Shown one piece after another: positions 32,070-49,820 of a stretch of DNA of 64,000 nucleotides. Within the stretch, counting starts at the first letter, position 1; every line of letters begins with the position of its first letter. Source of the DNA: Bdellovibrionales bacterium (GTDB taxonomy: Bacteria; Bdellovibrionota; UBA1018; CAIMNF01); contig JAFEAO010000001.1 of assembly GCA_018266375.1 (NCBI GenBank), forward strand, positions 6,800 to 70,799, written 5' to 3'. Below the pieces are notes generated by a model. It searched no databases and was not told the origin of the DNA. It saw nothing but the letters and a program-made list of their open reading frames with translations. The translations under genes and the position numbers were made by a program.

Positions 32070-33428
32070 ATGGGCTCTTGGGCTTTTAAATTCTTTATTT
32101 TCCTTGTGTTCTCCTCATGCAACGCTTTTGCGACGGTCGGAACTTTGGTCGATTACAAATCGATCGACAGTCGGTCTATCGGAAGCATCGGACTCGATAC
32201 TTCGAGCTTTATGTATAAGGCCAAAGGCCGCGATACTTCAGCCACAACTTTCGAAGCCTCTCTCGGAGGACAATTCGACACCGCGATTTTACACGGCGTC
32301 GGCTCCGCCCAGTTTTTTACATTCGTAAATAATTCACCCCAACTCGGATTCGAAGCACCCGAGCTCTACCTCTCGACTCAAAAGAATCTTCTCGATGCCC
32401 ACACCATCACCGTCGGCCGCCGGAAGTTCGAATGGTCGAAGGTCGACAAAGAATGGAACATGATGAGCCTCTGGTCGCCGCGTTTTACCTGGGATCAAAT
32501 CTACCCTGAGACCATCGGGATGACCGGGCTTTTTTACACGTACGAAACGCCCCGCTTTAAATTTATGGCGTTCGGTTCGCCGATCGCGATTCCGGAGCGC
32601 GGTACCCCGATCTCCGAAGAAAACGGCAACATCGTTTCTCCCAATCCATTTTGGAATCCGCTTCCAAGCCAACTCAGCGTCCAAGGCGCACCGACGCAAA
32701 TCAACTACACCCTCCTCATGCCGGCGCTTCAGGATATTCTTTTGCGTCCGAACTTTGCCGTTCGCGGATACTACGATCTCGGCGAAGGCTTTTGGTTGAG
32801 CGCGAACGCAGGGGTGCTTCCAGTCAACATGACTCAGCTCGCGGCCGAGCCGTATTATTACCATGGCAACATCAACGTGAACATCCGCCCTCAGTTCCCG
32901 ATGCGTAACCTCTACACCGCCGAGTTTGGCTACAATGACTCCAGTAAACTTTGGAACGCGTGGATGTCCGTCAGTTACGAAAAACCCTTCAACTTCGAAA
33001 ACAACCGCAACTGGTTGAATCCGGTGATCACTCCGACTTCGGTCGTGAGCTTGGGCACCGACTTTCAAGTCACCAATAACTTCCGTTTCGACGGTGCGAT
33101 CTTGTTCGTGCGCGAGCAGGAGTTTGTCCGCGACTCAAGCCTTCCGAACATCAACGTCGATCTTCCGACCCGCTACCCGCTTAAGCAGGGCATCAAAGCG
33201 GCAGGCACCTGGTCGTTCAGCGACACAAACGAAGCCACCGTGGCTTGGATTCAAGATCTCGTGCAATCATCAAACTTCGTCTCTTTCGATTTACAGCACA
33301 AAATTTTCAGCGCGAATATGTCCATCGGCGGGGGTGCTGATCTCATGCTTGCGAATACAAACAAGGGTTGGGTCGGGCAATATTACGGGGATGACCGACT
33401 TCGAGGTTGGCTAAAGTATGCGTTCTAA
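32070..33428 (+). CDS. Outer-membrane beta-barrel protein, hypothetical (452 aa)
   Basis: Signal peptide MGSWAFKFFIFLVFSSCNAFA, aromatic-rich alternating pattern, and a C-terminal ...GWLKYAF terminal Phe. Confidence 0.5.
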   Translation: MGSWAFKFFIFLVFSSCNAFATVGTLVDYKSIDSRSIGSIGLDTSSFMYKAKGRDTSATTFEASLGGQFDTAILHGVGSAQFFTFVNNSPQLGFEAPELYLSTQKNLLDAHTITVGRRKFEWSKVDKEWNMMSLWSPRFTWDQIYPETIGMTGLFYTYETPRFKFMAFGSPIAIPERGTPISEENGNIVSPNPFWNPLPSQLSVQGAPTQINYTLLMPALQDILLRPNFAVRGYYDLGEGFWLSANAGVLPVNMTQLAAEPYYYHGNINVNIRPQFPMRNLYTAEFGYNDSSKLWNAWMSVSYEKPFNFENNRNWLNPVITPTSVVSLGTDFQVTNNFRFDGAILFVREQEFVRDSSLPNINVDLPTRYPLKQGIKAAGTWSFSDTNEATVAWIQDLVQSSNFVSFDLQHKIFSANMSIGGGADLMLANTNKGWVGQYYGDDRLRGWLKYAF

Positions 33429-35736
33429 AATTCTTTCCTACATTTCGGTCTTGAGCCTCTGCCTTAGCGGCTGCGGTCTTTTAGGCAATAAAGACGCTCC
33501 CGAGGCAAAGTCAAACGTGAGCGCGACCGGATGCTTGAACGAATCCAAAGACTTGATCGGTCGTTACGTCGGGGGCAGAATGACCCAGACCGAATGGAAA
33601 TCCGCTTTCGACTGTATTAACAAATCCCTCGATTTCTTCACCGACTTCGTCCGCGGATCGGGCGTCGACTCTTACACGCAAGGCGACATGTACGAACTCG
33701 TAACCAAGTTTTTGATCACGAACGGCAAAGTCCGTCCCGATCTCATGCGCGGGGCCTTTAACCTGAAGATGGCTCTCTTCGGCGGTGACGCAAAAGAATT
33801 CAAAAAAGACGAAGTGGAAGTCCTGAAGCGCTCTCTCACTCGGCTTCATGATATTACCAGTGACCTCATTCCTTATCTGCAACTCCGCCAGAATCCGAAT
33901 GCGGATCTGAACCAAATCCTTGAAATGGTTCCGGCCTTCAAACGCGCCGGCGACCAACTCGCGGACTTCATGAACACGCTGCCGACCAACATCATGAGTT
34001 CGGACGCGATGGATTTGCTCTTTAATGAACTCACCTACACCCTGGGCCTCTCTCAAGTCGATAACTTGGGCGAAAAGGTGTCGGTCGCGAAATGGCTTTT
34101 GTTCAACACCCGCCGAGACGCGTTCGAGCCCTATGACTGGGCACAGATCTTCCGCGATGCCTTCGGCTTAGGCGGTATCTTGCTCGCTCTTAAAACCGCG
34201 GGTGCTCCTGCCGAAGTTTGCGCTGACCCCAACAACTCCGAGCCTAAATGCAAGGTGTTCCAGCGTTTAGGCGAAGACTACCGTTACCGCGAATTCTTCT
34301 GGGAACTTCTCCAGCAAGCGAAACCTTACTTCACCGATGCCCTGAAACGCCATAACGGCTCGGTTCCGCTTCCCATCTTCGATCACATCGTCGACAACCT
34401 TCCCAAAGGCATGCTCGATAGCGTGCCAAAACCAGTACTGAAGAACGTGATCCGTCCGATGGTGATGCGCCTCATCGGTTCTGAGAGCGAAATCGGTTTT
34501 GACAACCGTACCATCGACAACCTCTACGGCCTCGTTGAGAACGTCGTGAAGGATTTAGGCCTCCTCGATCGATTCTACGAGAGAACCGGGCTGAATCCGG
34601 ATAGCGTCACGGTGGCAAACTTCAATACTACCATTAAACAATACGAGGGAAGCCTCTCCGGCGACGATCTCCGCCGATTCCAAACGATTGAAACTGCGTT
34701 GACCGAGCAACCTGCCCTCATGCAGCCGGACGGATTTATCAAATACGTTCCAAATCTCGGTTACTCGCTCACTCAGCACCGCGTGGTGCTCGCGTTCCGC
34801 AACTTGGTGAACTTCATCCACGTCGGTTACGGAAGCGGTTCCGATCACTTTCTCGAAAACGATTTTACCCAGTTCTTCGCCGACTACACCGAGCTTTGCT
34901 ACGCATTTAAGTTGATCGACATCACCGTCGCGGATTTCGGCAAAAAACGTTTCTCGGATCTCGATCTCTTTACCGCGAAAAGTAACGGCGACGCAAAAGC
35001 CCAGATCCCAGAAATAGTGACCTACGCGCTCACTCTCGTGTCATCAGGCAAAATGACTACGAAAATGAAAAAGGAAATCGACGCCGCTTGTCCGCTCAGT
35101 AACGGCATGGACAACATGGACACGTATTGGGTGGACGGTGATTGTTTCCGCCGTCAGTACAATGAGCGCCTCGAGTATTGGCTCGATAACTTCCCGCGCT
35201 TTAAAGCCTATTGGGTCAACCTCGGTCCGACCGACAAAGCCAAGGCCATGAAGTGGCTCGAGCACGGTGCCCGTCGTAACGGCTACACCGGCGACCTGAA
35301 CCAGCCGCAAATGGACTGGTTCGGCGCCTTCGACTTCCAAGCGATGGCGACAGTGATCCATTATACCGAAGCCCTGTTTACTCGCTTCGACGGCAATATC
35401 AACGAGACTCTGAGCAAGTCCGAGGTCAACAACGCGTTTGACCTCTTTAAAAACCTGATTCAGAGAAAAGCAAAAGACGTCGCCAACACCGACATCTCAA
35501 GTAACTACATCTTGAAGGCGGTGTTTTCGTACATCGTGCGATACCGCTCGATGCCGGTCCTGAGCTTAAGTCAGTTGGGTAACACCGCGCAATTCGTGTG
35601 GTGGCTCGCCGTTTACTCGCTTCCGACGACAAACTATTCGGCCGACCGTATCGGCGTTTTCAACATCGTCTGTCAACTTGCATTACCGGATTCAGATGAC
35701 CAGAAAAAACGCACAAAAGACATCTGCGCACCATAA
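33418..35736 (+). CDS. Large lipoprotein, hypothetical (772 aa), with one canonical EF-hand-like Ca-binding loop
   Basis: Lipobox LSGCGLL. The DGNINETLSKSE segment is a 12-residue EF-hand loop (DxNxNxxxxxxE). No other family recognised. It overlaps the preceding OMP gene by 11 nt. Confidence 0.5.
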   Translation: MRSKILSYISVLSLCLSGCGLLGNKDAPEAKSNVSATGCLNESKDLIGRYVGGRMTQTEWKSAFDCINKSLDFFTDFVRGSGVDSYTQGDMYELVTKFLITNGKVRPDLMRGAFNLKMALFGGDAKEFKKDEVEVLKRSLTRLHDITSDLIPYLQLRQNPNADLNQILEMVPAFKRAGDQLADFMNTLPTNIMSSDAMDLLFNELTYTLGLSQVDNLGEKVSVAKWLLFNTRRDAFEPYDWAQIFRDAFGLGGILLALKTAGAPAEVCADPNNSEPKCKVFQRLGEDYRYREFFWELLQQAKPYFTDALKRHNGSVPLPIFDHIVDNLPKGMLDSVPKPVLKNVIRPMVMRLIGSESEIGFDNRTIDNLYGLVENVVKDLGLLDRFYERTGLNPDSVTVANFNTTIKQYEGSLSGDDLRRFQTIETALTEQPALMQPDGFIKYVPNLGYSLTQHRVVLAFRNLVNFIHVGYGSGSDHFLENDFTQFFADYTELCYAFKLIDITVADFGKKRFSDLDLFTAKSNGDAKAQIPEIVTYALTLVSSGKMTTKMKKEIDAACPLSNGMDNMDTYWVDGDCFRRQYNERLEYWLDNFPRFKAYWVNLGPTDKAKAMKWLEHGARRNGYTGDLNQPQMDWFGAFDFQAMATVIHYTEALFTRFDGNINETLSKSEVNNAFDLFKNLIQRKAKDVANTDISSNYILKAVFSYIVRYRSMPVLSLSQLGNTAQFVWWLAVYSLPTTNYSADRIGVFNIVCQLALPDSDDQKKRTKDICAP

Positions 35737-37638: not shown

Positions 37639-38409
37639 ATGCAGCCCGTCTCCGCGCTTCTCATCATCAAGAACGAAGAACAATACATCGAACGCGCGCT
37701 TGCATCCGTCGCTTGGTGCGATGAAATCGTGGTGATCGACGCCATGAGTACCGACCGCACCAAAGAGATCTGTATTCGCAAAGATACTCCTTGGGCGAAA
37801 ACAGTAAGATTCATCGAACGACCATGGCTCGGTTTTGCCGGCCAACGCAATTTCGCGCTTGCACAGGCGAGCCACGAGTGGGTGTTTTTCTTGGACGGCG
37901 ACGAAGCTTGCTCTCCCGGCCTCGAAACCGCGATCAAACAAGTGCTCGCGGAAAACCCGAAGAAGCAGTTCAAAATCCGCCGGCAAGAATACTTCCTGAA
38001 AAAGCCGATTCATCACGGGATTTGGAACCCCTCGACCCCAATCCGTTTGTTTCCGAAGTCCGGAGTGAAGTTTATCGGCGAAGTCCATGAGGGCGTCGCG
38101 AGTCGCTGGGAAACCGGGCTTATCGATGCGCCAATCCTCCACGTCGAGGATCTGAGGATTGAGCGTTTTTTGAACAAGCTCAACCACTACACGACCCTCC
38201 AAGCCCAAGCCGATTACGATTCTGGCCACCGGACCAGTGTCCTTCGGATTCTTTTATCGTTTCCCGCCATGTTTTATAAAAACTACTTCTATTACGGCGC
38301 TTACAAGGACGGGGTCCATGGAGTGATCATCTCTATATTAGAGGGGGTTTCCCGCACCGTCCGCCACCTCAAGATCTGGCAGATCACCCAGGTCTCAAAA
38401 TTAAACTAA
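37639..38409 (+). CDS. Family-2 glycosyltransferase (LPS-core/cell-envelope type)
   Basis: VSALLIIKNEEQYIERALASVAWCDEIVVIDAMSTDRT is the GT-A N-terminal signature. Confidence 0.7.
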   Translation: MQPVSALLIIKNEEQYIERALASVAWCDEIVVIDAMSTDRTKEICIRKDTPWAKTVRFIERPWLGFAGQRNFALAQASHEWVFFLDGDEACSPGLETAIKQVLAENPKKQFKIRRQEYFLKKPIHHGIWNPSTPIRLFPKSGVKFIGEVHEGVASRWETGLIDAPILHVEDLRIERFLNKLNHYTTLQAQADYDSGHRTSVLRILLSFPAMFYKNYFYYGAYKDGVHGVIISILEGVSRTVRHLKIWQITQVSKLN

Positions 38410-38449
38410 ATTAGTGTAATTTAACGAAAACACAGATTGTTAAAAATAC

Positions 38450-38478
38450 TTGACACATACAGTCAAATCATTTACCAT
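38450..38478 (+). promoter_or_regulatory. Candidate sigma70-type promoter (TTGACA, 17 nt, TACCAT) for the downstream 11-gene operon
   Basis: TTGACA at 38450-38455, a 17-nt spacer and TACCAT at 38473-38478. This leaves a ~235-nt leader that contains an 8+8 palindrome acgcattg-ca-caatgcgt at 38610-38627. Confidence 0.35.
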
Positions 38479-38714
38479 TTAAGTAACAGAGTAAAACTGT
38501 CAACTTTGGTCGTGGATGACCATTATAGGTGCAGGTATGAATTCACGGATGAAAAAGCAGGTCGCACGTCGTTTTTATCTTTCTCCATCCATTTGTAACC
38601 TCTTGATAACGCATTGCACAATGCGTCAAAAGTCCTTTTCCTACTTAATCCAAGTGACCGGAAAGCCGATAGGTATCCGTACCACTCGCAGTGGCTCAAC
38701 CAGGAGACTGAAAG

Positions 38715-39578
38715 ATGAATAAGTTCATGAAAACAGCGGCAATACTCCTCGTCCTCGCCTTCGTCACGTTTACCGTGTATCGCTTAGGAACTAAAAAATC
38801 GGGTGACGTGTCCACGACCGAAGTCACGCAACTCAACGCTCAAAAAGATGCAAACGGCAATCTCGTTGATCAAAACGGCCACGAGATGGCCGGCGTCGAC
38901 ACCAACGCGGGTGCAGTGAACGCAACTTCGGGCAATGGCGGCGAGCAAAATACTCAAAGCACCGAGAACGGCGAAAAGGGCGATGCCGTTCCTAAAGTCA
39001 AATTCGGCGCGGCTCAAGCCCCGAAAGCGGAAGGCTCATTGAGCGACAAGCTCAATCAACCTACCTTTACTCAGACCAAGCCCGAGAGCAACTGCTTTTC
39101 GTTTGAATACAAACACGAAAAAGAAGCGTTAAACAAAGACATCGAAGACTTCTTGGATTACTCGAACGCATTCCCGATCTTTCACGACAAAGTGACTGAA
39201 AAATCGATCTGCGTGAAAGTGAACGACAAAGCGGTTCCTTTCAAAGTTTCAAAATACAAAAATCAAAAAGAAATCGTCGTCGGATCGGTTGTCGGTCCGG
39301 AAGCGACGATCAAAGTCTCTTACTGCGTGAACACCAGCAAGTGTAAAGAAGCTTGCGCGGTGAAATCGAACCGTTTCATGGACGATTTAATGTCCGACAC
39401 GGGTGACGAAAACGAATTTAAAGAGTCTTGGGGAGACGCTAAAGCACAAAAGAAAGCCCTTCAAGCGGGCGTAAAAGAATTCAGAAAAGTGGCCAGCGAA
39501 AACCGCGATTTGCAAAAGCAGTCGACGATTCGCAGCTGGGACACGGTTCAGAAAAACGAATGGGTCTGTAATAAGTAA
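38715..39578 (+). CDS. Membrane-anchored/secreted Cys-containing hypothetical protein (287 aa), first gene of the operon
   Basis: N-terminal hydrophobic anchor MNKFMKTAAILLVLAFVTFTVY, a Gly/Asn/Gln-rich linker and six Cys in the C-terminal half. RBS AGGAG. Confidence 0.5.
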   Translation: MNKFMKTAAILLVLAFVTFTVYRLGTKKSGDVSTTEVTQLNAQKDANGNLVDQNGHEMAGVDTNAGAVNATSGNGGEQNTQSTENGEKGDAVPKVKFGAAQAPKAEGSLSDKLNQPTFTQTKPESNCFSFEYKHEKEALNKDIEDFLDYSNAFPIFHDKVTEKSICVKVNDKAVPFKVSKYKNQKEIVVGSVVGPEATIKVSYCVNTSKCKEACAVKSNRFMDDLMSDTGDENEFKESWGDAKAQKKALQAGVKEFRKVASENRDLQKQSTIRSWDTVQKNEWVCNK

Positions 39579-39602
39579 TCTAAGGAATAAGGAGAAACTA
39601 AA

Positions 39603-40259
39603 ATGGGAATTTTTGAATTTATCAGAGACAATTTTTTGCACGTCGTACCGATCTTGGTAGCGGGTTTTATCGCCGTGGCGATCATCTTCGAGCGTGCTCA
39701 AACCCTTTTCAAAACCTATACTCTTCCGGCAAAAGACGCGTTCTTCGACAAAGCGCGCGAATTGGTTTCGAAAGGTCAAATGAACGAAGCTTTGGCTCTT
39801 TGCCAGCAATTCTCGGGTAAGCCGACAGCGGAGATCGTGAAAGTCGCGATCGAACGCGCTCACCAGCCGGAAGAATTGATCATGAACTCGGTCGAACTGA
39901 CTCGTAACAAGTACGCCGAACTCATTCAGAAACGCACGAGCTACCTTGCTACGATTGCAAACGTCGCCACCCTCCTCGGCCTCTTGGGTACCATCGCCGG
40001 TCTGATCGAATCATTCGCGGCCGTGGGTCACGCCGATGCTCAGCAAAAAGCGCAACTCCTCGCGAACGGTATTTCAACCGCGATGAACGCGACGATGCTG
40101 GGCCTGGGTGTTGCCGTCCCCTGCATGATCGTATTCAGCTTCTATATCAATAAAGCAAACCGTTTGGTTGCCGAGCTTGAATCAGCCGGCTTGATGGCTT
40201 TGGACTCGATTATGGTTTGCAGCCTTAATCAGAACCAAAACGATCGGAGAGTGTCATGA
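39603..40259 (+). CDS. TolQ/ExbB/AglR-type 3-TM proton channel protein
   Basis: Three TM segments. MotA_ExbB C-terminal signature ...LLGLLGTIAGLIESF... and ...ANGISTAMNATMLGLGVAVPCMIVFSF.... RBS AAGGAGA. Confidence 0.8.
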   Translation: MGIFEFIRDNFLHVVPILVAGFIAVAIIFERAQTLFKTYTLPAKDAFFDKARELVSKGQMNEALALCQQFSGKPTAEIVKVAIERAHQPEELIMNSVELTRNKYAELIQKRTSYLATIANVATLLGLLGTIAGLIESFAAVGHADAQQKAQLLANGISTAMNATMLGLGVAVPCMIVFSFYINKANRLVAELESAGLMALDSIMVCSLNQNQNDRRVS

Positions 40260-40699
40260 GTGCCAATTTTGGCAGCTCCAGTGATGGGGAAGTCGAGTTA
40301 AACATCACTCCCATCATTGACTGTTTTACCGTGTTAATCACGTTCTTGCTCGCATCGGCAAGCTTCATCAGTATCGGTTTCTTCGAAGCCTATACTCCTG
40401 GAACCAGCGTCGATCCGGGACAAACCGAACCCGACACCGAAGCGATCGTAAAGATCAAGTCGAACTCGATCGCGGAGTTTCAGGTTAAAGGCAAAAAGAA
40501 CTTAACTTTGCATTTCGATATGAAGCAAAAAGACGCTCTTAACGGACTCGACGAAGAGCTTAAAAAACTTCACGACGAAAAGCTCAACATGAACAATGTC
40601 CTCGTCAGCGCGGACGACGATGTCGACTACAAGGTTTTGGCTGATCTGATGAGCCACCTGAACGAATCGCAGTTCCCTGTCGTGGTGGGAGATTTCTAA
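40256..40699 (+). CDS. ExbD/TolR/AglQ-S-type single-TM protein (147 aa)
   Basis: ...ELNITPIIDCFTVLITFLL... is the ExbD/TolR N-terminal TM signature. ATGA overlap with the upstream gene, RBS GGAGAG. Confidence 0.75.
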   Translation: MSANFGSSSDGEVELNITPIIDCFTVLITFLLASASFISIGFFEAYTPGTSVDPGQTEPDTEAIVKIKSNSIAEFQVKGKKNLTLHFDMKQKDALNGLDEELKKLHDEKLNMNNVLVSADDDVDYKVLADLMSHLNESQFPVVVGDF

Positions 40700-41220
40700 T
40701 GTTTCACCGTAAAAGAAAGCTCTTTGGACGCAAAAAGAAAGGTGGTGGGGACGGTCAAGTGGCCCTTCAGATCACTTCGATGGCGGATATTTTCACGATC
40801 CTCCTCGTCTTCTTGCTCAAAGGTCTGGCTACAGACGCACTCCAAATCTCGCCTTCAAGCGGGACCGTGCTTCCAAACGGTATTCGCACGAGCCCACTCA
40901 ATGAAGTCGCTCTCCAGGTCGAAGTCTCCAAAGATGGGATTTTGATCGAGAAGGAATTCTTGATGCCGCTCAACGAAGGCCGCTTAACTCATAAAGATCT
41001 TGGCAAAGACGGTTTCATCACCGTCATGAACGAAAGATTAACCAAGGAACGTGATAGACAGAAGTTGATCGCGCAAGCAAACGACACCGTGAAAATCGAC
41101 TCACGCGCAATCATCATGTCTGACCAGAGCGTTCCGTTCGCAACCATGAAACCTGTTCTCCGTACCCTGGCCTCTCAAGGCTACTCTGAGATCAAGTTCG
41201 CGGTGGTGAAAGAAAACTAG
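40699..41220 (+). CDS. Second ExbD/TolR-type single-TM protein (173 aa)
   Basis: ...LQITSMADIFTILLVFLL... signature. TAATG junction with the upstream gene. Confidence 0.7.
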   Translation: MFHRKRKLFGRKKKGGGDGQVALQITSMADIFTILLVFLLKGLATDALQISPSSGTVLPNGIRTSPLNEVALQVEVSKDGILIEKEFLMPLNEGRLTHKDLGKDGFITVMNERLTKERDRQKLIAQANDTVKIDSRAIIMSDQSVPFATMKPVLRTLASQGYSEIKFAVVKEN

Positions 41221-41234
41221 AAGGAGAAGTTGCG

Positions 41235-44200
41235 ATGAGCACGAAGCTGATCTCAACATTACGCTTTATAATCCTGGGTTGGATGATGTACTCCCTCTCT
41301 TATGCGGAGGAAGCGCAAGTCCGCAGCAAAACGGCGAAACTGACCGATATGGCTGCTTTGTCCGTTCAGGATCGCTCGATCAACAAGCTCAAATCATTGC
41401 TCTCGCAATACCGCGGTACCCCGCGCGAGCCTGAGTTCTTGGTTCGTTTGGCCGACCTTTATATGGAGCGTTCGGGCATCAGCTTCCGTATTTCGGAAGG
41501 TGCGGCAACCAAGAAGACTCACCTCTATAAAGAATCGTTGAAAGAAAGCGTGAAGATCTTCTCCGAGATCATCGCAAAATATCCTTACTACGTCGGTACT
41601 CCGATGGCGCACTTCAAGCGCGGCAAGGCTTACAAAGAACTCGCTCAAATCAAAAACGCGAAAACCGACTATTTGTGGTTGGATTCTCACGCGCAAGACT
41701 TCGAATATCTCGACTCGGTGTTGATCGACCTCGCCGATTTCGCGCAAGATGCCGCTCAACATCAAGAAGCTCTCGGTTATCTGGGTAAAGTCGAAAAGAT
41801 GATCGGAAGCGATTACTATCCGCTCGCCCTGCACCGCTCGGCTTGGAGCCATTTCAACCTCGCTAACTTCCAACAAGCGCACGACTATTTGAAACGCGAG
41901 ATCGGTTACTACTTCGAAAGCACAAAAGACCAAAAAGAAGCGGGTTCGGGAGCTGAAGTTGCGTTCTTGGAAGCGGCTTTCAACGATCTCGCGCTCTTCT
42001 ACTTCGAATCGATCAACAAAAAATCTTCATTCGCGACTCCGGACAAGGCGATCGCCCTCTTCGACAAACTCGACGAGAGCAAAGATCGCAAGTATTTCGG
42101 TCCAACCGCGGCTCGTTTCGCGCGTCTTTTGAAGGCTTACACCCTGGTTCCGGAAATGAACCAAGTTAATAAGATCATGATCAGCGATTACGTCAAGACC
42201 CCGGAAACCGCCGACATCGCGATGCTCGTGTTCCAATTCCACGCTGAACGCCGTGAGTACAACCTCCTCCCGGCCGCTCTCGCCGACTTAAACAAAGTCC
42301 GTGCTGGCGTAAAAAGCAAGGATCTCGATAGCAAAGTCGAGAGTGCCGTTTCAGGAGCTTTGACCAACTTGCACAAACTCGTGATTAAAAACAAACTTGC
42401 CACCGAACGCAATACCCTCTTCCGTCCGTTGATTGCGCTTACCGAATCGGTATCCGAACTCCTCGGCAACGAAAACTCGACCGCCTTGATGGCAAACTAC
42501 TCGTTGGCCGAGACTTCATTCGAACTCGGCGAGTACGAGCGCGCGACTCAAAAGTACGTCGATCTCCTCGATCCGAAATATGCAAAAACTCTCGAAGCCA
42601 AAAAGATCACTCGTCCGAACCTGGCGCTCCGCCTGCTCTCTTCACGCTATCGCGAGCTCAAGAAAGACAAATTGGTTCCAGAAAAGCTCACCATCCGAGC
42701 ATTGAACACAAAAGTCAGTCCCGCACCAAAAGACCAAATCAAGAAGATGAACGATTGGATCGCTTGGGTCGATCAATTTACCCAAGAAATCTCGAAAAGT
42801 ACGCCGGTTGAAGACAAACTCTCTTACTGGGCGTTCAATCTCGAAGCGAATAAGCTCACTTACGAATACATCGACCAACAACGAGCTCTCACTCGCCTCG
42901 AAGAGTTTTCTTACAAACACGCCGACACCGACGAGGGCAACGTCTCGATCACCATCGTGCTCGACACCTTGGCCAAGTCCGAAGACTCGATCCGCCTCTA
43001 CGACGTGACTCAAAAAGTGCTTGCGGTCAAAAACTGGAAGAGCAAGGGTTTCTTGGAAAAAGTCGCCGAGCAAAGCGCCGACTCCCACCTGAAAATCACT
43101 CTCAAAGTCGAAAAGCCGGAAGAAATCTTAGCACGCACCAAAGAGTGCCAAAGCAAGTTCAAGAACTCCAAAGTCAGCCAAGAATGCTTGATCATCGAGG
43201 CAAAAACCGAGCTTAAACTCCAGCAGTACGAGAAAGCCGATAAAGAATTCACGACTCTCATGAGCCAGGTCAAGGATGCCAACAAAGTGCAACCGATCCT
43301 CCTCATGCGCTCGGATGCCCGCAACAAACTCGGCCGTTTGGATGATTCGGTTCATGACCTCTTCCAATATCAAACCATGACCGAGTTCAAGGATGCCGAC
43401 ATCACCCAAACCATCCTTCAACACTATTGGTTCAAGCGCGACACTCAGCACCTCGACGCTCTTTTGAAAAACCCGAAAGTATGTGCCGGTAAAAACGCCG
43501 AAGCATGCGAACAGTATCAGGTCGTCCGAGTACTCGAAGAAGGCGACTCGAAAATAAACTACCAAAAGATCTTCAAGAACACCACACACGGGGACAAGGG
43601 CCTCGTAACGGTTTGGGCGCTGACCGCGCTTCAAACCCCGAAGAAGCTCCCGTTCCAAGACCGACTGGTGCTCTTGAACCGTTTGGCGACTTCTTGGGAA
43701 CACCTGAACCCGCTCTTGCAAGTGCACCTCTTGCCGACGCTTCAAACTCGCGTAAAAGACACGCTTGAATCGATTCAAGTATCCGCTCCGGGGATTGCTC
43801 CATTGACCGAAGATACCGCGACCATCGAACGCCGCATGAAACTCATGCAAGAAATCGACGCTACTTTCGCCAAAGTCATGAAGCTCCCTTGGCTTGAAAT
43901 CAAGATCAAAGGCGCAAACGAGCTCGGAATCATCTATGAACGCTTGGTCCGTGACCTCCGCGGCATCAACACCCCGGAAGACCTTTTGAAACCGTTCGTG
44001 AACAAGTCGAAAGAAATCAACAACGCGATCCAACAGCTTCAAGCGATGGCAATCAACTATACCGGCGTATCCGTTCAGCAGGTTGCTGTCGCACCTGGCA
44101 AGAGCGGTAAAGCCGTCCCTTCCCGCGCTCCGGCAAGCGCGACCAAGGCTCAGAACCAGGAAGTAGCGGTCAAAAACCAACTTCTCTCGAAAGAAGTTGA

Positions 44201-44453
44201 GAACACCATCCCGGCAAACCTTTGGGGTGAGTGGAAAAACGGCGTGGAACACAAACGCCGCGACTACCTCTTTTACCTGGTATCCGTTACGGAAACCGCT
44301 AACCCTGAATTCAAAAACATCAGTCCTGTCGTCAAAGGCATGGTGCTCTTGTTTGCGGATGCCCCGGCAGAAGCATACGAGCTCGTCAAGAACGCTCCGG
44401 AGACTCCGTTCAAAGCAACCGTTCTTACTCAATTTCAAGGAGTGAAGCCATGA
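41235..44453 (+). CDS. Large periplasmic TPR-repeat protein (1072 aa), GltD/AgmU-like by size and context
   Basis: Signal peptide MSTKLISTLRFIILGWMMYSLSYA, helical repeat (TPR-like) composition throughout, RBS AAGGAGA. Confidence 0.65.
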   Translation: MSTKLISTLRFIILGWMMYSLSYAEEAQVRSKTAKLTDMAALSVQDRSINKLKSLLSQYRGTPREPEFLVRLADLYMERSGISFRISEGAATKKTHLYKESLKESVKIFSEIIAKYPYYVGTPMAHFKRGKAYKELAQIKNAKTDYLWLDSHAQDFEYLDSVLIDLADFAQDAAQHQEALGYLGKVEKMIGSDYYPLALHRSAWSHFNLANFQQAHDYLKREIGYYFESTKDQKEAGSGAEVAFLEAAFNDLALFYFESINKKSSFATPDKAIALFDKLDESKDRKYFGPTAARFARLLKAYTLVPEMNQVNKIMISDYVKTPETADIAMLVFQFHAERREYNLLPAALADLNKVRAGVKSKDLDSKVESAVSGALTNLHKLVIKNKLATERNTLFRPLIALTESVSELLGNENSTALMANYSLAETSFELGEYERATQKYVDLLDPKYAKTLEAKKITRPNLALRLLSSRYRELKKDKLVPEKLTIRALNTKVSPAPKDQIKKMNDWIAWVDQFTQEISKSTPVEDKLSYWAFNLEANKLTYEYIDQQRALTRLEEFSYKHADTDEGNVSITIVLDTLAKSEDSIRLYDVTQKVLAVKNWKSKGFLEKVAEQSADSHLKITLKVEKPEEILARTKECQSKFKNSKVSQECLIIEAKTELKLQQYEKADKEFTTLMSQVKDANKVQPILLMRSDARNKLGRLDDSVHDLFQYQTMTEFKDADITQTILQHYWFKRDTQHLDALLKNPKVCAGKNAEACEQYQVVRVLEEGDSKINYQKIFKNTTHGDKGLVTVWALTALQTPKKLPFQDRLVLLNRLATSWEHLNPLLQVHLLPTLQTRVKDTLESIQVSAPGIAPLTEDTATIERRMKLMQEIDATFAKVMKLPWLEIKIKGANELGIIYERLVRDLRGINTPEDLLKPFVNKSKEINNAIQQLQAMAINYTGVSVQQVAVAPGKSGKAVPSRAPASATKAQNQEVAVKNQLLSKEVENTIPANLWGEWKNGVEHKRRDYLFYLVSVTETANPEFKNISPVVKGMVLLFADAPAEAYELVKNAPETPFKATVLTQFQGVKP

Positions 44454-44695
44454 AATGGATTTTAATCGTCGGCATGATGTTGATCACTTCAGAGGTCCAG
44501 GCGCAGAACAGCAAGCGCTCGACCGTACTCAATTTTGAAGACGAGATGGTGGAAGGGATCAACCGGAAACCTCTCGATTCCGTGAACCAGATCAGTGAAC
44601 GGAATAAAAAAGGAAAATCCCACCTCTACAAAAAACGCGCCGGTTTCGCTGACCGCGACCAAATCCTCATGAATGAGTTGAGGCTGCAACCATGA
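44450..44695 (+). CDS. Small secreted protein (81 aa)
   Basis: RBS AGGAGTG, signal peptide MKWILIVGMMLITSEVQA, ATGA overlaps on both sides. Confidence 0.45.
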   Translation: MKWILIVGMMLITSEVQAQNSKRSTVLNFEDEMVEGINRKPLDSVNQISERNKKGKSHLYKKRAGFADRDQILMNELRLQP

Positions 44696-45891
44696 AGATC
44701 CATTTCAATAAGCACGAGTTCTTTGTTCAGTACTTCTACGGAAAACGGACTTCCGATATTCCGCAGAGTGAACGTTGGGATGGCGAAAGCCCGTTGGCAC
44801 TCGGCCACCCTGCCCGTTTCATTCTTCAGAGACGCGGTTCAAGGATTTTTATCCGCGACATGACCGAACCATTGGGCGTGAAACGCCCTTTGAGCAATTT
44901 CGATCTGACTCCGGATCAATACAATCAAAAGATCGCGATCGGCAATCTTGGCCGCGAAAGCTTGCTCATCCGTCCGATCTTCCAGACGAAGCCGGCCAGC
45001 ATCGAGAAGGCCCGCCTCATGCCGAAAGTCCCGCTTGCTGAAACGGCGGTCGCGGCGATCGAAGACACGCTTTTCAACAAGAACCTGAAAATAGTCGGCA
45101 GTGTCTGCGCTGCCCTCTTCTTGGCCGTGTTCGTGAGCAACATGATGCAACCCGATGTTCAAACGGACGAAGATTTGATTCCGAAGAAATTCGCGAAAAT
45201 CATCATGACCAAGCCGAAAGAAAAGATGAGCCAGCCCAGCTCCGGCGGCGCGGCTGCAAGCCAGGCCCAAGCAAAAGCGGTGGCTCGTGCGATGCAATCA
45301 AAGACCGTTCAAAAGAGCTTGAAAGCGATCTTGAAAGGCGGCTTGGCTAAGTACTCGGTGATGAATACGGGACGCGCGATCCAGAGCTTGTCTCAAAAAA
45401 TCGTATCGAACAACAACGTCACCGGTGCGGGCCTTCAAAACAAAGCGTCCGATATCCTGGCGGGCAGCCGGGTCGGTACTTTCCAAATCGGCAGCGAAAA
45501 CGGTTACGGTTCCGGCAACGGCGTGAACGTCAAGGGTCAAGGTAACGGTCAGTTCGAAATCGGTTTGAACACCAACGAAGCGTCGGTGGATGAAGGCTTG
45601 ACCCGCGAAGAGGTCGCGAAAGTCATCCACAGCCACATGAACGACATCCGTTACTGCTATGAAACCGGTATCTTAAAAGATCCGTCTTTGGCGGGTAAGG
45701 CTTTGATCGATTTTAAAATCAACCCGGAGGGAGCCGTTCCAAACGCGAAGGTGGGTGAGATGACCCTTTCTGACCGTTCGGTCGGAAGCTGTCTCATCAG
45801 CAAACTTCAAACTTGGAAATTCCCTAAACCACGCGGCGGAGTTCACGTAGCAGTGAGCTATCCGTTCGTATTCAAGAGCTTATCGAGGTAA
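44692..45891 (+). CDS. Single-TM protein with Gly-rich periplasmic linker and C-terminal TonB-C-like domain (GltG/PglI-AgmX-like), 399 aa
   Basis: ~110-aa cytoplasmic N-domain, TM IVGSVCAALFLAVFVSNMM, then GSGNGVNVKGQGNG. C-terminal ...IRYCYETGILKDPSLAGKALIDFKINPEGAVPNAKV...SVGSCLISKLQTWKFP... follows the TonB_C pattern (the xGxVxVxFxIxxxGxV...W.F.P beta fold). Confidence 0.55.
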   Translation: MKIHFNKHEFFVQYFYGKRTSDIPQSERWDGESPLALGHPARFILQRRGSRIFIRDMTEPLGVKRPLSNFDLTPDQYNQKIAIGNLGRESLLIRPIFQTKPASIEKARLMPKVPLAETAVAAIEDTLFNKNLKIVGSVCAALFLAVFVSNMMQPDVQTDEDLIPKKFAKIIMTKPKEKMSQPSSGGAAASQAQAKAVARAMQSKTVQKSLKAILKGGLAKYSVMNTGRAIQSLSQKIVSNNNVTGAGLQNKASDILAGSRVGTFQIGSENGYGSGNGVNVKGQGNGQFEIGLNTNEASVDEGLTREEVAKVIHSHMNDIRYCYETGILKDPSLAGKALIDFKINPEGAVPNAKVGEMTLSDRSVGSCLISKLQTWKFPKPRGGVHVAVSYPFVFKSLSR

Positions 45892-45896
45892 TCATC

Positions 45897-47690
45897 ATGA
45901 AACTGATCACGCTATCGGCATTGATGCTGGTTGTAAACGCCCACGCTGGGGACTTTCGGTCGATCAGCGAACGTGGCTCCGTCTCTGTTAAACAAGGTTG
46001 CCAATCCGGCGAACGCTGGACCATCGGCGGAACCTCGAACCCGAAATGGTTGGACCGTTTCCACGACTTCACCAGCGGCAAAATCACTCCGGTAAGCGGT
46101 TTCGCCGAAGCTGTGTCATTGAAACGCATCAGCGCGCTTCTCAAGAAATCCGATTTCGAACGCGACTTCTCGGAATATTGGGTCGGCCGCATCCTGTACG
46201 AGATGAAACTCGATCCGTTGGCGCACCAAGTGTTCGAATCCGTCCTTGAAAACACCGACCAACAAGAAATTAAGAAAGCCGCTTTCGTCTGCATGGCGAT
46301 GATCCAACACCGTAGCCCGGATTGGAAAGCGCCTGCCGACAAAGTTGAATGGGGCGCGTTTGACCTCACCGCGGACGATGCGGATGCGATCTACACCGCC
46401 TCCCTCACACGTCCGACCAAAAATACTTGGTTGCTCCCGGCCGGCTATCGCGATTTCTACAAAGGCGTACAAGCGATGAAAGATCGCAAGTACACCGAAG
46501 CGCACGAGCATCTTACCAAGTTCATCGCTTACCTCGATGCTCCGAAGGTCGTGACGCGCTTAGAGAGATATCGCGACGTTGCTCACATCATGCTGGGCCG
46601 CGCGCTTTACTCGACCGCTCACTTCAAAGAAGCGACTCTCGAGTTTCAAAAAGTCAAAAAGACATCGAACATGCAGATCGAGACATTGAGCAACTTGAGC
46701 TGGGCGTACCTGCTTCAAGAAGACTTCGATGCTTCGCTCGGGATCTCATTGCAGTTGCGTACCGGCAACTTGCGTAACGCTTTCGCGCCTGAAACCCAAA
46801 TGGTGGCTGCGATGGCGCTGAACGAACTTTGCATGTATCAAGACTCCATTCGTGAAGTTCAAACTTTCATTAACGACTACGGCACAAGCTTCAAATGGCT
46901 CTCCGCGAACCAAAAGAACAAAGAGATCTACGCCGAGCTTTTGAAATACTTCAAAAAGCAAAGCACGGTTCCGACTAAGGTCGCTACCGAGTGGATGAAG
47001 AGCCCTCAATACATCAGCCGTCAGGAAGAGATCAACCGTCTGATCGAACACCCGAGAAAAATGGTGGAATGGCACCAAAAGGGTTATCAGGAACAGATCA
47101 AGATCACCAACGACTTTATCGCTAAAAGCATGAAGTTCGTTGCCGACGTCAAGCAAGCCAAAATCAGACAGAAACCGGGTGACGATGAGATGCCCGAGAA
47201 GCTCGCGATTCAGTATCTTAACATGAAGCGCGACCTCCGCCGCCTCACCCGCTACTACCGTGCTTCCAAAATCTGGAAAAACCTGACTCGTAACTACGAG
47301 AAGCGCATTCCGGGCTATCGCATGATGGTCGTCAACAACATCAACGCCGACCTTCAAAAAACCAATAAGTCGATGCTCATGACCCTCAACATGGTCCGTG
47401 AGAATATGGACTTGATCGAAGTCGAGATCTACAACGGCGCGAGCCAAGACTTGGTTTGGAAGGAAGCTCACCCCGACTACGAGAAGGTGTCGGCTGAGAT
47501 CGAAACCCCGGAACAAGAAGTCGCGAACTCGACGGTTTGGAAATGGGGGCGCTTTCTCGCCTCTGACGTTGAAAACGCCGAGGTCTGGGAAGATGAAGTC
47601 GGTACCCTGAAGGCCGATATCTCCAACCAATGCGATAAGAAAGACCGTTATTTGAAAGTTAAATTGACCACAAGAAGGACGAAGTCATGA
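45897..47690 (+). CDS. Secreted TPR-like protein (597 aa), GltE/AglT-like by size and context
   Basis: Signal peptide MKLITLSALMLVVNAHA, helical repeats, RBS GAGGT. Confidence 0.55.
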   Translation: MKLITLSALMLVVNAHAGDFRSISERGSVSVKQGCQSGERWTIGGTSNPKWLDRFHDFTSGKITPVSGFAEAVSLKRISALLKKSDFERDFSEYWVGRILYEMKLDPLAHQVFESVLENTDQQEIKKAAFVCMAMIQHRSPDWKAPADKVEWGAFDLTADDADAIYTASLTRPTKNTWLLPAGYRDFYKGVQAMKDRKYTEAHEHLTKFIAYLDAPKVVTRLERYRDVAHIMLGRALYSTAHFKEATLEFQKVKKTSNMQIETLSNLSWAYLLQEDFDASLGISLQLRTGNLRNAFAPETQMVAAMALNELCMYQDSIREVQTFINDYGTSFKWLSANQKNKEIYAELLKYFKKQSTVPTKVATEWMKSPQYISRQEEINRLIEHPRKMVEWHQKGYQEQIKITNDFIAKSMKFVADVKQAKIRQKPGDDEMPEKLAIQYLNMKRDLRRLTRYYRASKIWKNLTRNYEKRIPGYRMMVVNNINADLQKTNKSMLMTLNMVRENMDLIEVEIYNGASQDLVWKEAHPDYEKVSAEIETPEQEVANSTVWKWGRFLASDVENAEVWEDEVGTLKADISNQCDKKDRYLKVKLTTRRTKS

Positions 47691-48151
47691 AGACGTCGGA
47701 ACGCTACTACCTATTCAAAGGCGGCCAACTCTTCGGGCCGATCGTGCAGGAGAAACTTGAAACCCTGCGTAAAACCGGAGAGATCCTCCGTTACTCGTGG
47801 ATCATGAATGAGTCGGATCAGAGCTGGGAACCGGTCGATACCAAACCTAAAGAAAACCCATTTACGGCGACGAAGACGACTTTAAAGTCCCGCGACTTCT
47901 CTGGCGCGTTCATTTTCGCCAAGAATCCCTATTTGGGTGAAGTTAAAGGAATACACTCTTTCGGTGTAGAACTTTTTATCGACGGTCATAAAATCGCCGG
48001 CCTTCAGCCCAATACCGTGTTACAATTGAACCTAGCAGACGAGACTCACGATCAGGCCATCAATACCGAGGTGGTCTTTCAACAAGCTGAAGAGCAGGCC
48101 AATGGAGTACTATTGCGCTTCGGCTGGGTCCAGGGTCCCGCGCAGCTGTAA
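47687..48151 (+). CDS. Cytoplasmic GYF-like (DUF4339-type) domain protein with a beta-rich C-terminal half (154 aa)
   Basis: YYLFKGGQLFGPIVQEKLETLRKTGEILRYSWIMNESDQSWEPV fits the DUF4339/GYF-like pattern (WYY..NGQ.GP...EL..L...G.I...TLVW..G...W.P). The C-terminal ~80 aa are beta-strand-like, possibly PilZ-like. Confidence 0.45.
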   Translation: MKTSERYYLFKGGQLFGPIVQEKLETLRKTGEILRYSWIMNESDQSWEPVDTKPKENPFTATKTTLKSRDFSGAFIFAKNPYLGEVKGIHSFGVELFIDGHKIAGLQPNTVLQLNLADETHDQAINTEVVFQQAEEQANGVLLRFGWVQGPAQL

Positions 48152-48181
48152 TTATTAACGAACCAAAGTAGGAGGTTGACC

Positions 48182-49009
48182 ATGAAGGTCCATCGCATTG
48201 CTTTACTGCCCGTCTCAATCCTAGTTTTAATGCTCTGTCAAAACGCATTCGGCGCGGACAAGAAAAAGAAAGTTGCAGCACCCGCTCCCGTAGCAGCCGC
48301 AACCGCTCCGACCAGGGATGCAGCCGCCGCTGCCGCAGCTAACGAAAAAGCCGCGGAAGAAGGCGAAAGCGTCGACGTCAGCAAGATCACCGAAAAATAC
48401 TGGGCCCAAGGCAAAGAGACCGAGCTCGGCGTAGTTCAAAACCGCAAGTACACGAGCGCAGGTCGTTTCGAACTCGAGGGTTTTTTCGGTACGATCTCGA
48501 GCGACCCGATGTTGACCGTGCACCACTTCGGTGGGTCGCTCGGTTATCACTTCGATCAATATTTTAGTTTGCATGCGATCGCATGGCGCTCGATCGCGAA
48601 AGGTTCGGACGCATTGGCCGCATTCGATGCGCTGAACTCAGGCACGAACGCGAACACCAACCTTCCGTCGGGATTCTACGGCTTACAGGCCAATTACAAC
48701 ATCCTCTACGGCAAGGCGTCTCTCGTCGGTAAGGCGATTATCTACGTCGATATCTTCGTGCTCGGCGGCTTGGGCATCACCGGAACCGAAACCGGGAACT
48801 ACTTCACTCCGTTCCTCGGCCTCGGACAGAAAATTCACTTGAACAAGTACATGGCGCTCTCGCTCGACTACCGAGTCATGCGCTACAACGAGACCATCAA
48901 GTACAAAAGTCCGGGAACGCTTCCTGTAACCCACTCGGTGGGTGACGTCGCGGGCGATCGTGCGAATACGACCGACGTCGTGACCTTGGGCATAAGTTTC
49001 TTTTACTAA
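48182..49009 (+). CDS. Outer-membrane beta-barrel protein (276 aa), last gene of the operon
   Basis: Perfect RBS AGGAGG 6 nt upstream, signal peptide MKVHRIALLPVSILVLMLCQNAFG, Ala-rich linker, beta-barrel pattern and a C-terminal ...LGISFFY terminus. Confidence 0.6.
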   Translation: MKVHRIALLPVSILVLMLCQNAFGADKKKKVAAPAPVAAATAPTRDAAAAAAANEKAAEEGESVDVSKITEKYWAQGKETELGVVQNRKYTSAGRFELEGFFGTISSDPMLTVHHFGGSLGYHFDQYFSLHAIAWRSIAKGSDALAAFDALNSGTNANTNLPSGFYGLQANYNILYGKASLVGKAIIYVDIFVLGGLGITGTETGNYFTPFLGLGQKIHLNKYMALSLDYRVMRYNETIKYKSPGTLPVTHSVGDVAGDRANTTDVVTLGISFFY

Positions 49010-49076
49010 GGAGCCTGCAGACCCAGCGTTTTTTACTTGTAGACGATGAAGTTAACGTCGCACCGACGGGCGCGAA

Positions 49077-49820
49077 TCAAGACTTCTTGCTGATGCGGTA
49101 ACCGGCGCCGTAAACGGTTTGGAAATTGCCGTCGAATGCGGAGACTTTTTTACGCAACGAAGTGACGTGCGCATCGATCAAACGGTCGTTTTTATTTTGG
49201 TCTCCCCAGACGACGTCCATGATATCTTTACGGGAAACCACGGTACCCGCTCTCGCCATCAAAAGTTGGAGAATGCCGAACTCGCTCGGACTCAAGTCGA
49301 TCGCGCGGCCGTCGACATTGACTTCGCGGCTCTGCACGTTGAGCGTGAGATTACCCAAGATCAGTACCATCTCGGAAACTTTGCCGAGCTCGCGTGCGCG
49401 CTTCAATTTTGATCGCAAACGAGTGAGGAGCTCTTCGATTTCGAAAGGTTTGGAAATAAAATCATCGGCACCGCTGTTGAAAGCACGGATACGTTCAAAA
49501 CTGGTGTTTGCCGCGGTCAACATCAATACAGGAATGTGTTTTGTTTCCGGCATTTGCCTCAACTGATCGCAAGCGGCGACGCCGTCGAGTTTCGGCATCA
49601 TGATGTCCATGAGAATGAGATCCGGACGAATTTTTTTTGCGAGTTCGACGGCTTCGCGTCCGGTGGATCCCAGCGTCACTTGAAAGTGATCGGTAAGAAA
49701 TTCTTTCAAAAGCACACGAATTTGCGGCTCATCGTCGATTACGAGAAGCTTCGGCAAATTAGATGACCTTTGTGTATTTGGTGCTGCTGTATTCACGATT
49801 TCGTTCATGAACTCTCTCAT
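49077..49820 (-). CDS. OmpR/PhoB-family response regulator (receiver + winged-helix) with no adjacent histidine kinase
   Basis: ...KLLVIDDEPQIR...DLILMDIMMPKLDG... receiver domain. ...LTLNVQSREVNVDGRAIDLSPSEFGILQLLM...GAGYRI trans_reg_C domain. Confidence 0.8.
   Translation of the reverse strand: MREFMNEIVNTAAPNTQRSSNLPKLLVIDDEPQIRVLLKEFLTDHFQVTLGSTGREAVELAKKIRPDLILMDIMMPKLDGVAACDQLRQMPETKHIPVLMLTAANTSFERIRAFNSGADDFISKPFEIEELLTRLRSKLKRARELGKVSEMVLILGNLTLNVQSREVNVDGRAIDLSPSEFGILQLLMARAGTVVSRKDIMDVVWGDQNKNDRLIDAHVTSLRKKVSAFDGNFQTVYGAGYRISKKS

Follow-up and report, generated by a model that had tools for sequence, protein, structure and literature searches.

Two described systems stand closest to the gene cluster considered here, the Agl-Glt machinery of Myxococcus xanthus and a set of operons in Bdellovibrio bacteriovorus HD100. 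The AglR/AglQ/AglS pattern of the former comprises a TolQ-like channel and, as its partners, two TolR-like proteins that differ from each other (PMC3169522; PMC11761067), and the M. xanthus genes are distributed over three loci (AglRQS; G1, gltD-J; G2, gltK-B-A-C). HD100 contains four operons of this type (PMC2797640; PMC3169522), and Bd0412-0420, Bd1473-1483 and Bd2368-2377 were described as 'expanded core complexes' by Luciano et al. in 2011 (PMC3169522). Three HD100 operons were assigned as AglR-AglQ-AglS-GltD-(GltF)-GltG-GltB-GltC in the supplementary table of that study, GltE was missing in three of the four HD100 clusters, and GltH, GltI, GltJ and GltK were reported absent in Bdellovibrio (PMC3169522). 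Here, an operon of ten tightly packed genes is described from a 64,000-nucleotide (nt) stretch of DNA of a Bdellovibrionales bacterium (contig JAFEAO010000001.1), hereafter the window. The operon spans positions 38715-49009 on the + strand, and GltE is missing from it as well.

The operon very probably encodes an Agl-Glt-type machine, and for such a machine a role in driving gliding-type movement is rather better than an even prospect. The reading that we favor on balance is of one complete Agl-Glt-type trans-envelope force machine, an 'expanded core complex', with gliding-type movement as its likely output. An AglRQS-like motor joined to a Glt-type transducer in a compact Bdellovibrio version had already been proposed for this DNA from its letters alone (the sequence-only reading), and curated hidden Markov models, structure prediction, synteny and the literature all agree with that proposal. 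The alternative offered alongside it, an undescribed machine that runs on proton-motive force, is not needed, since the operon belongs to a family with published members in B. bacteriovorus (PMC2797640, PMC3169522). With operons of this type on record for Bdellovibrio, the window locus is a further example and nothing categorically new.

The loci compared below include no B. bacteriovorus or Myxococcus sequences, and the likeness to HD100 and M. xanthus was drawn from published assignments and curated models. The HD100 operons have the same parts list as the window operon (AglR/Q/S, a putative GltD, a small putative GltF, GltG, GltC and a barrel of GltB type; no GltE) and likewise form single operons of ∼10-11 genes each. 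Protein sizes are close, with GltG of 376-488 amino acids (aa) in HD100 versus 399 in the window, GltD of 987-1237 versus 1072, and GltF of 82 versus 81. The order differs in one respect: the barrel gene of the window stands last, after the genes for GltC and a GYF-PilZ protein, whereas the HD100 barrel gene lies between those for GltG and GltC. With M. xanthus the window operon has in common the TolQ-like channel and its two TolR-like partners, a large tetratricopeptide repeat (TPR) scaffold, a putative GltF, GltC, outer-membrane barrels, a cytoplasmic GYF module and the plan of GltG (FHA-like domain, transmembrane (TM) helix, linker and TonB C-terminal domain (CTD)-like head). By contrast, the window genes form one operon rather than three loci; the GltG-like protein contains one FHA-like domain in 399 aa, whereas M. 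xanthus GltG contains two in ∼650 aa; and the GYF domain is part of a soluble PilZ-fold fusion instead of the membrane-bound GltJ, where it stands beside a zinc ribbon.

The second, third and fourth genes are recognizable as those of an AglR/AglQ/AglS-like motor, as judged from family matches and conserved residues. The 218-aa product of the second gene matched PF01618 MotA_ExbB (2.8e-25, 88.9 bits), and TM segments were predicted at residues 11-29, 117-135 and 164-182 together with the conserved TM2/TM3 glycine-threonine motifs (LGLLGTIAGL and NATMLGLG). Its nearest solved relative is TolQ 8odt (51 bits), with ExbB next, and it is 47-80% identical to orthologues at related loci. The adjacent proteins of 147 and 173 aa matched PF02472 ExbD (6.2e-14 and 2e-11, respectively), and each contains one TM segment with an Asp residue (Asp22 and Asp30, respectively) that is conserved in at least 90% of 46 orthologues. 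These two ExbD-family proteins are just 24% identical to each other. The channel and the pair of ExbD/TolR-type proteins named by the sequence-only reading each matched a Pfam family. The naming of AglQ versus AglS follows gene order in the supplementary table of Luciano et al. (PMC3169522), and the basic N-terminal tail of the 173-aa protein, MFHRKRKLFGRKKKGG, would fit the AglS tail described for M. xanthus (PMC11761067). Comparison with Tol-Pal and ExbBD-TonB, best hits to which would by the same reading refute the proposal, gave equivalog scores far under the curated cutoffs. The channel reached 67 bits with TolQ (cutoff 221) and 48.8 bits with ExbB (cutoff 206), and the 147-aa protein reached 40.1 bits with TolR (cutoff 127); overall, the TolQ, TolR, ExbB and ExbD scores were 3- to 10-fold under the cutoffs.

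The 399-aa protein had been described beforehand as a GltG-like single-TM protein with a Gly-rich linker and a TonB-C-like end, and this description held. Its AgmX/PglI C-terminal domain scored 103.1 bits against NF033768 (cutoff 40), and the annotation of the identical protein in an NCBI metagenome-assembled genome (MAG) is 'AgmX/PglI C-terminal domain-containing protein'. The best NCBIfam family was gliding_GltG (2.4e-36, 125.5 bits; equivalog cutoff 650), where residues 184-396 covered positions 435-647 of the 650 in the model; in M. xanthus GltG, this region holds the segment predicted to wrap GltD and the TonB-CTD-like head (PMC11761067). The tonB_Cterm model scored 16.5, its cutoff being 27.1. 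With 32 homologues as input, AlphaFold2 modeled a beta-sandwich at residues 9-96 (predicted local distance difference test score (pLDDT) 82-90), a TM helix spanning 123-151 and, at 300-395, a CTD (pLDDT ∼90), and topology prediction placed one TM segment at 134-152. The periplasmic linker is rich in Gly, Ala, Ser and Gln and is shorter than that of M. xanthus GltG. Foldseek searches with the CTD returned the TonB-CTD 6sly (E 2.3e-3, probability 1.0), 6fip, FusB 7zc8 and TolA, with probability ∼1.0 for the TonB, FusB and TolA CTDs, and the N-terminal beta-sandwich matched the FHA structure 6ccd weakly (E 0.27, probability 0.87). Across the protein family, Pfam TonB_C was matched by 19 of 32 members and FHA by 1 of 32.

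For the periplasmic proteins, scans of whole orthologue families gave far clearer assignments than the window copies alone. The 1072-aa protein is secreted and all-helical according to prediction, and the window copy gave weak TPR, YbgF/CpoB and BamD-type matches in Pfam and NCBIfam; within its family, a YbgF-type TPR was found in 41 of 42 members (best 1.1e-31). In related loci its gene is always placed between the AglS-like and the GltF/GltG-like genes, and proteins in the same slot in HD100 were assigned to MXAN_4870 GltD, namely Bd0417 (987 aa), Bd1478 (1237 aa) and Bd2374 (996 aa) (PMC3169522). Position, size, secretion signal and TPR content together suggest that this protein is the scaffold in the GltD position. 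The 81-aa protein matched NF033764 gliding_CglF at 3.7e-4 (20.5 bits, under the cutoff of 90), and 40 of the 67 members of its family matched the same model (best 1.2e-5). CglF is GltF (PMC4488436), and Bd1477 (82 aa), which occupies the same slot in HD100, was assigned as GltF (PMC3169522).

For the 597-aa TPR protein, the initial label had to be changed from GltE (AglT) to GltC. All 63 members of its family matched NF033756 gliding_GltC (best 4.7e-21), no GltE model was found among the family's matches, and the HD100 proteins of the corresponding slot, Bd0413, Bd1474 and Bd2369, were assigned to MXAN_2541, which is GltC (PMC3169522). The window copy itself scored 39.9 bits (2.3e-10; equivalog cutoff 450), its residues 222-353 pairing with positions 320-454 of the 622 in the model. 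The last gene is predicted to encode a GltA/GltB-type barrel, on the basis of the TIGR04565 family and of the HD100 GltB slot, in which Bd0414, Bd1475 and Bd2370 were assigned to MXAN_2539 GltB (PMC3169522). This 275-aa protein scored 71.6 bits against TIGR04565 OMP_myx_plus (cutoff 60), and all 73 family members matched the model (best 3e-32), as expected for the outer-membrane beta-barrel that had been proposed as the final product. A conserved periplasmic N-terminal extension with the motif IKEKYWA..G....GVVQNR.Y precedes the barrel.

Two further proteins of the operon are conserved accessory proteins. The first gene product was described from the outset as a membrane-anchored Cys-rich protein, and it indeed comprises a TM-like segment at residues 4-22 (a membrane anchor or signal sequence), a variable low-complexity linker and a conserved C-terminal domain of ∼170 aa, with Cys127, Cys166, Cys204, Cys210, Cys214 and Cys285 conserved at 94-100% in 32 orthologues. 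The protein is presumably periplasmic. Neither the window copy nor the family members were assigned to any Pfam or NCBIfam family. Weak hits to GltJ and CglE in the family (17-18 bits) covered only the GltJ TM helix and disordered linker and were rejected as compositional. The family has 234 representatives at E ≤ 1e-3 among 1.84 billion proteins; ten distant relatives were sampled, with no informative names (eight were nameless or 'hypothetical'), and one label from JGI, 'enhancing lycopene biosynthesis protein 2', seems to be an error of automated annotation. Across related loci, the six-Cys gene is always first in the cluster.

The 154-aa product of the ninth gene contains an N-terminal GYF_2 domain and a C-terminal PilZ-fold beta-barrel, and neither a TM segment nor a signal peptide was predicted. 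The expectation of a GYF/DUF4339-like cytoplasmic protein was right with regard to the GYF domain and the location and had missed the PilZ-fold domain. The GYF domain matched the GltJ GYF structure weakly, and the C-terminal half has the same beta-barrel fold as the PilZ motility regulators YcgR and MotI/DgrA. Given that the canonical PilZ motifs RxxxR and [D/N]xSxxG are absent from the protein, canonical binding of cyclic di-GMP (c-di-GMP) is unlikely and was rejected on these grounds. The GYF domain of M. xanthus GltJ brings in AglZ and has a part in the assembly of focal adhesions (PMC11135422), and it is plausible that the soluble GYF protein substitutes for GltJ. One HD100 gliding operon has a PilZ gene, Bd1482, at its 5′ end (PMC3271064); both PilZ proteins belong to motility-type operons, whereas the window protein is fused to GYF and encoded at the 3′ side. 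No publication combining GYF and PilZ was found in the literature searched, and no discussion of the GYF-PilZ-fold or six-Cys proteins was found in the literature examined.

The distribution of the ten genes was established by an alignment-based scan of a genome collection, which gave 80 loci, all labeled as MAGs except the isolates FG-1 and FG-2 and none from a named cultured species, and by tblastn searches of 85 fetched loci with the ten proteins. A scan of the collection with the 1072-aa protein alone as query gave no loci, and a homologue search with the channel protein was saturated by metagenome proteins bearing no names. The gene set is collinear in dozens of divergent Bdellovibrionota, Oligoflexia and Bacteriovoracaceae MAG contigs at 20-80% identity, and the arrangement is far beyond chance because the same ten genes recur in order across these contigs. 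The analysis shows gene content, domain identities, topology and conservation. Two gene orders were found: arrangement I, that of the window, with the barrel gene last, and arrangement II, the commoner order and that of HD100, with the barrel gene between the GltG-like and GltC-like genes. Trees of four genes place the arrangement I loci in a single clade, and no locus with this order among the 80 has a Bdellovibrio genus label. Both orders coexist in one MAG (L018, L063), and two or more paralogous clusters are present in several MAGs, with no paralogues of the ten proteins elsewhere in the window.

Several features of individual related loci are recorded here. An extra ORF of ∼515-590 aa, which the window operon lacks, stands between the six-Cys and channel genes in many arrangement II loci (L019, L020, L022, L026, L029, L037, L041 and L043 among them, at ∼2-4.7 kb in locus coordinates), and a Pfam scan of these ORFs gave no family. 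A divergent paralogous cluster type with a longer GltG-like protein (∼570 aa) was found at L005, L050 and L079, where tblastn gave no match to the GltF-like or GYF-PilZ proteins; at L005, a 113-aa ORF occupies the GltF slot and the first gene encodes 442 aa. Complete Agl-Glt-type clusters were also found in two records titled as non-Bdellovibrionota, L015 (CALPVV020000017.1, 'Nitrosovibrio sp. Nv4', 34 kb) and L026 (JAGTJX010000003.1, 'Lysobacteraceae bacterium', 982 kb), labels that reflect mis-binning, mislabeling or transfer.

The coordinates of the operon are given in Table 1. The same ten genes were returned by independent public gene calls on the identical Logan contig, and their products range up to 1072 aa in size (287 aa for the first, 81 and 147 aa for the smallest). 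Eleven genes had been counted previously, in a list that itself names ten proteins. A 68-aa ORF (38516-38722, + strand) overlapping the start of the first gene was considered as the eleventh and rejected, being absent from the public gene calls and having no conserved counterpart in any of the 85 related loci. The co-directional arrangement, with Shine-Dalgarno sites and overlapping junctions, is borne out: five junctions overlap (by 4, 1, 4, 4 and 4 nt), four are separated by gaps (of 24, 14, 5 and 24 nt), and a GGAG-type Shine-Dalgarno site is present ahead of all operon starts. For the last gene, the ATG start, with AGGAGG 6 nt before it, is more likely than the TTG start. Topology prediction on all ten proteins agreed with the topologies assigned earlier, and signal peptides were predicted for the 1072-, 81-, 597- and 275-aa proteins.

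Table 1. Genes of the operon and the candidate promoter (window positions)
Feature	Positions	Strand	Product length	Assignment
Candidate promoter	38450-38478	+		Sigma-70-type, TTGACA-17-TACCAT; ∼240 nt upstream of gene 1; consensus match only
Gene 1	38715-39578	+	287 aa	Six-Cys anchored protein, family without annotation
Gene 2	39603-40259	+	218 aa	AglR-like channel
Gene 3	40256-40699	+	147 aa	AglQ-like TolR/ExbD-type subunit
Gene 4	40699-41220	+	173 aa	AglS-like TolR/ExbD-type subunit
Gene 5	41235-44453	+	1072 aa	GltD-position TPR protein
Gene 6	44450-44695	+	81 aa	GltF (CglF)-like small secreted protein
Gene 7	44692-45891	+	399 aa	GltG-like transducer
Gene 8	45897-47690	+	597 aa	GltC-like TPR connector
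Gene 9	47687-48151	+	154 aa	GYF_2 and PilZ-fold cytoplasmic protein
Gene 10	48182 (ATG) or 48176 (TTG) to 49009	+	275 aa (ATG) or 277 aa (TTG)	Predicted OMP_myx_plus beta-barrel

The promoter candidate is the one sigma-70-like match in the interval 38300-49200, where shuffled sequence averages 6.1, and terminator-like sites in the same interval are at chance level (20 observed versus 18.4 expected). The 305-nt leader (38410-38714) showed no conservation at the DNA level in relatives. A riboswitch or other known RNA in the leader, an idea derived from the reported control of gliding genes by cyclic GMP-AMP (cGAMP), was rejected, with no Rfam match at E ≤ 1. An Rfam scan of the whole window on both strands likewise gave no family at the gathering score, and base composition is even throughout.

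The operon is flanked by MnmC-like and GT2 genes upstream and by an OmpR-type regulator and a radical-SAM gene downstream. The same flanking genes are found in close relatives, and the locus is therefore chromosomal and stable. No tolB, pal, TonB-dependent receptor or flagellar genes are adjacent, as stated in the sequence-only reading; this was established from the gene calls and from Pfam scans of ten flanking ORFs, in which no matching domains were found. The regulator (49077-49820, − strand; Response_reg and Trans_reg_C) is convergent to the operon end and may be a local regulator. It is kept in L002 and L003, with a PAS histidine kinase after it in L003. Some 8 kb upstream of the operon, an ORF of 2315 aa (23325-30272, + strand) contains five Invasin_D3 stretches (2.6e-72) and three Big_1 stretches and is a candidate giant intimin/invasin-like surface adhesin. 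No Pfam match at E ≤ 1e-3 was obtained for ORFs 33418-35736, 32070-33428, 20871-22577 (+ strand) and 55491-56933 (− strand), encoding 772, 452, 568 and 480 aa, respectively; the 772-aa gene is also found upstream of the operon in L003.

A working scheme for the machine can be put forward, with its contacts taken by analogy from the M. xanthus structural model (PMC11761067); from this we infer subunit contacts, stoichiometry, energy source and biological output. Here, an AglR-like pentamer would house a heterodimer of the AglQ-like and AglS-like subunits, and the membrane Asp of each TolR-like subunit would bind protons such that proton flow is converted into movement. The motor would act on the GltG-like protein through its TM helix and membrane-proximal FHA-like domain, and the long periplasmic linker of GltG and its TonB-CTD-like head would in turn engage the TPR scaffold in the GltD position. 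The GltF-like protein and the GltC-like TPR connector would connect this scaffold with the outer-membrane barrel of GltA/B type. The GYF and PilZ-fold protein would probably serve as a cytoplasmic adaptor or regulatory input, comparable to the role of the GltJ GYF domain in Myxococcus, and the six-Cys anchored protein would be an additional periplasmic subunit. The likeliest output would be that the cell moves, in gliding fashion, relative to a surface, either abiotic or the envelope of the prey during entry, residence or exit.

A number of observations weigh against the assignment to a gliding Agl-Glt machine. Equivalog level was not reached by GltG (125.5 of 650 bits), GltC (39.9 of 450) or GltF (20.5 of 90), and the proteins are therefore distant homologues and not equivalogs. 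No member of the 1072-aa family (0 of 42) matched any NCBIfam Glt model, and a lipobox search of the operon's secreted proteins found none, although mature M. xanthus GltD and GltE begin at Cys (PMC11761067). The TM helix of the GltG-like protein contains no His, unlike the TonB/TolA motif, and GltE, GltH, GltI, GltJ, GltK, CglB, AglZ and MglA are all absent from the operon. With regard to function, core complexes are also present in non-gliders and the M. xanthus paralogues (Nfs) perform non-motility work (PMC3169522), and according to a 2026 review the Bdellovibrio gliding machinery is still unidentified (PMC13104615). The original caution that gliding is a matter of inference in this operon still stands.

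The main competitor retains the same Agl-Glt hardware and differs in its output, which would be that of an Nfs-like proton-driven conveyor for a surface or envelope task; adhesin or polymer transport, envelope remodeling and handling of the prey interface are possible tasks. This we regard as a serious yet rather unlikely explanation. The precedent is Agl-Nfs of M. xanthus, by which spore-coat polymer is carried around the surface of the cell, and the duplicated M. xanthus clusters cannot replace the motility genes, one of them driving sporulation (PMC3169522; PMC3858216). Several paralogous clusters occur per genome in the phylum, with four in HD100, and not all need therefore be gliding motors. 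The window gene order, moreover, marks a paralogue lineage of its own, which is found beside the other order in one MAG and lacks a Bdellovibrio-labeled member among the fetched loci, and HD100 Bd0411-0421 peaks inside prey, where 'gliding' is speculation (PMC12546842). However, the operon contains no cargo, polymer-synthesis or adhesin gene, and the neighboring GT2 gene is set apart from it by 305 nt and a promoter-like site. Existing expression data also track surface contact and exit by gliding: B. bacteriovorus glides, its aglQ-like bd1480 is surface-induced and under cGAMP control (PMC9140294), and HD100 clusters are stage-specifically abundant in the early bdelloplast and at exit (PMC12546842).

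A canonical Tol-Pal envelope-integrity or ExbBD-TonB nutrient-uptake system has a motor of MotA_ExbB and ExbD proteins, a single-pass TonB/TolA-type transducer and CpoB/YbgF TPR in common with the window operon. The channel's nearest solved relatives and the fold of the transducer CTD point in this direction, as do the YbgF/CpoB-type repeats of the large TPR proteins and the labels 'energy transducer TonB' or 'TolA' given to homologues in some sources. Nevertheless, this identity is effectively refuted and retains a very small probability: the equivalog scores are low, two distinct TolR-type genes are present, the SHLS-type TM motif is missing, and the TonB C-terminal model stayed under its cutoff whereas the AgmX/PglI domain scored well above. 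In addition, tolB, pal and a TonB-dependent receptor gene are lacking nearby, and Glt systems are the specific setting of the GltC, GltF and OMP_myx_plus partners. Equally improbable is the reading of the operon as a nonfunctional paralogue, decaying or silent, for which the several paralogues per genome and the degenerate PilZ nucleotide-binding motifs might be cited. Set against this are the ten intact ORFs with Shine-Dalgarno sites and translational coupling, the conservation of the Asp residues, the six Cys and the CTD core, and the synteny that relatives show, at 50-80% identity, across the locus and the genes flanking it. A complete Agl-Glt-type force machine with gliding-type output accordingly remains the explanation that we prefer.

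A more specific proposal can be made tentatively, as one that may well prove wrong. The GYF-PilZ and six-Cys proteins might be undescribed subunits of Bdellovibrionota Agl-Glt machines, in which the GYF-PilZ protein would replace the GltJ switch module and couple the motor to polarity or nucleotide-signaling proteins without canonical c-di-GMP binding, and the barrel-last order might mark a separate lineage of paralogues that has a stage-specific role of its own in uncultured predators.

In terms of the biology of these bacteria, Agl-Glt-like operons are prime candidates for Bdellovibrio gliding and possibly for the movements by which prey is entered, traversed inside and left. Across the phylum, all ten genes are conserved as a set, in two or more gene orders and as several paralogues per genome. 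The resulting parts list is cleaner than the Myxococcus-centered one, with GltC in place of GltE and, for GltJ, a soluble GYF adaptor, and it points to specific candidates for the cytoplasmic link that is missing and for the regulatory input in predatory bacteria.

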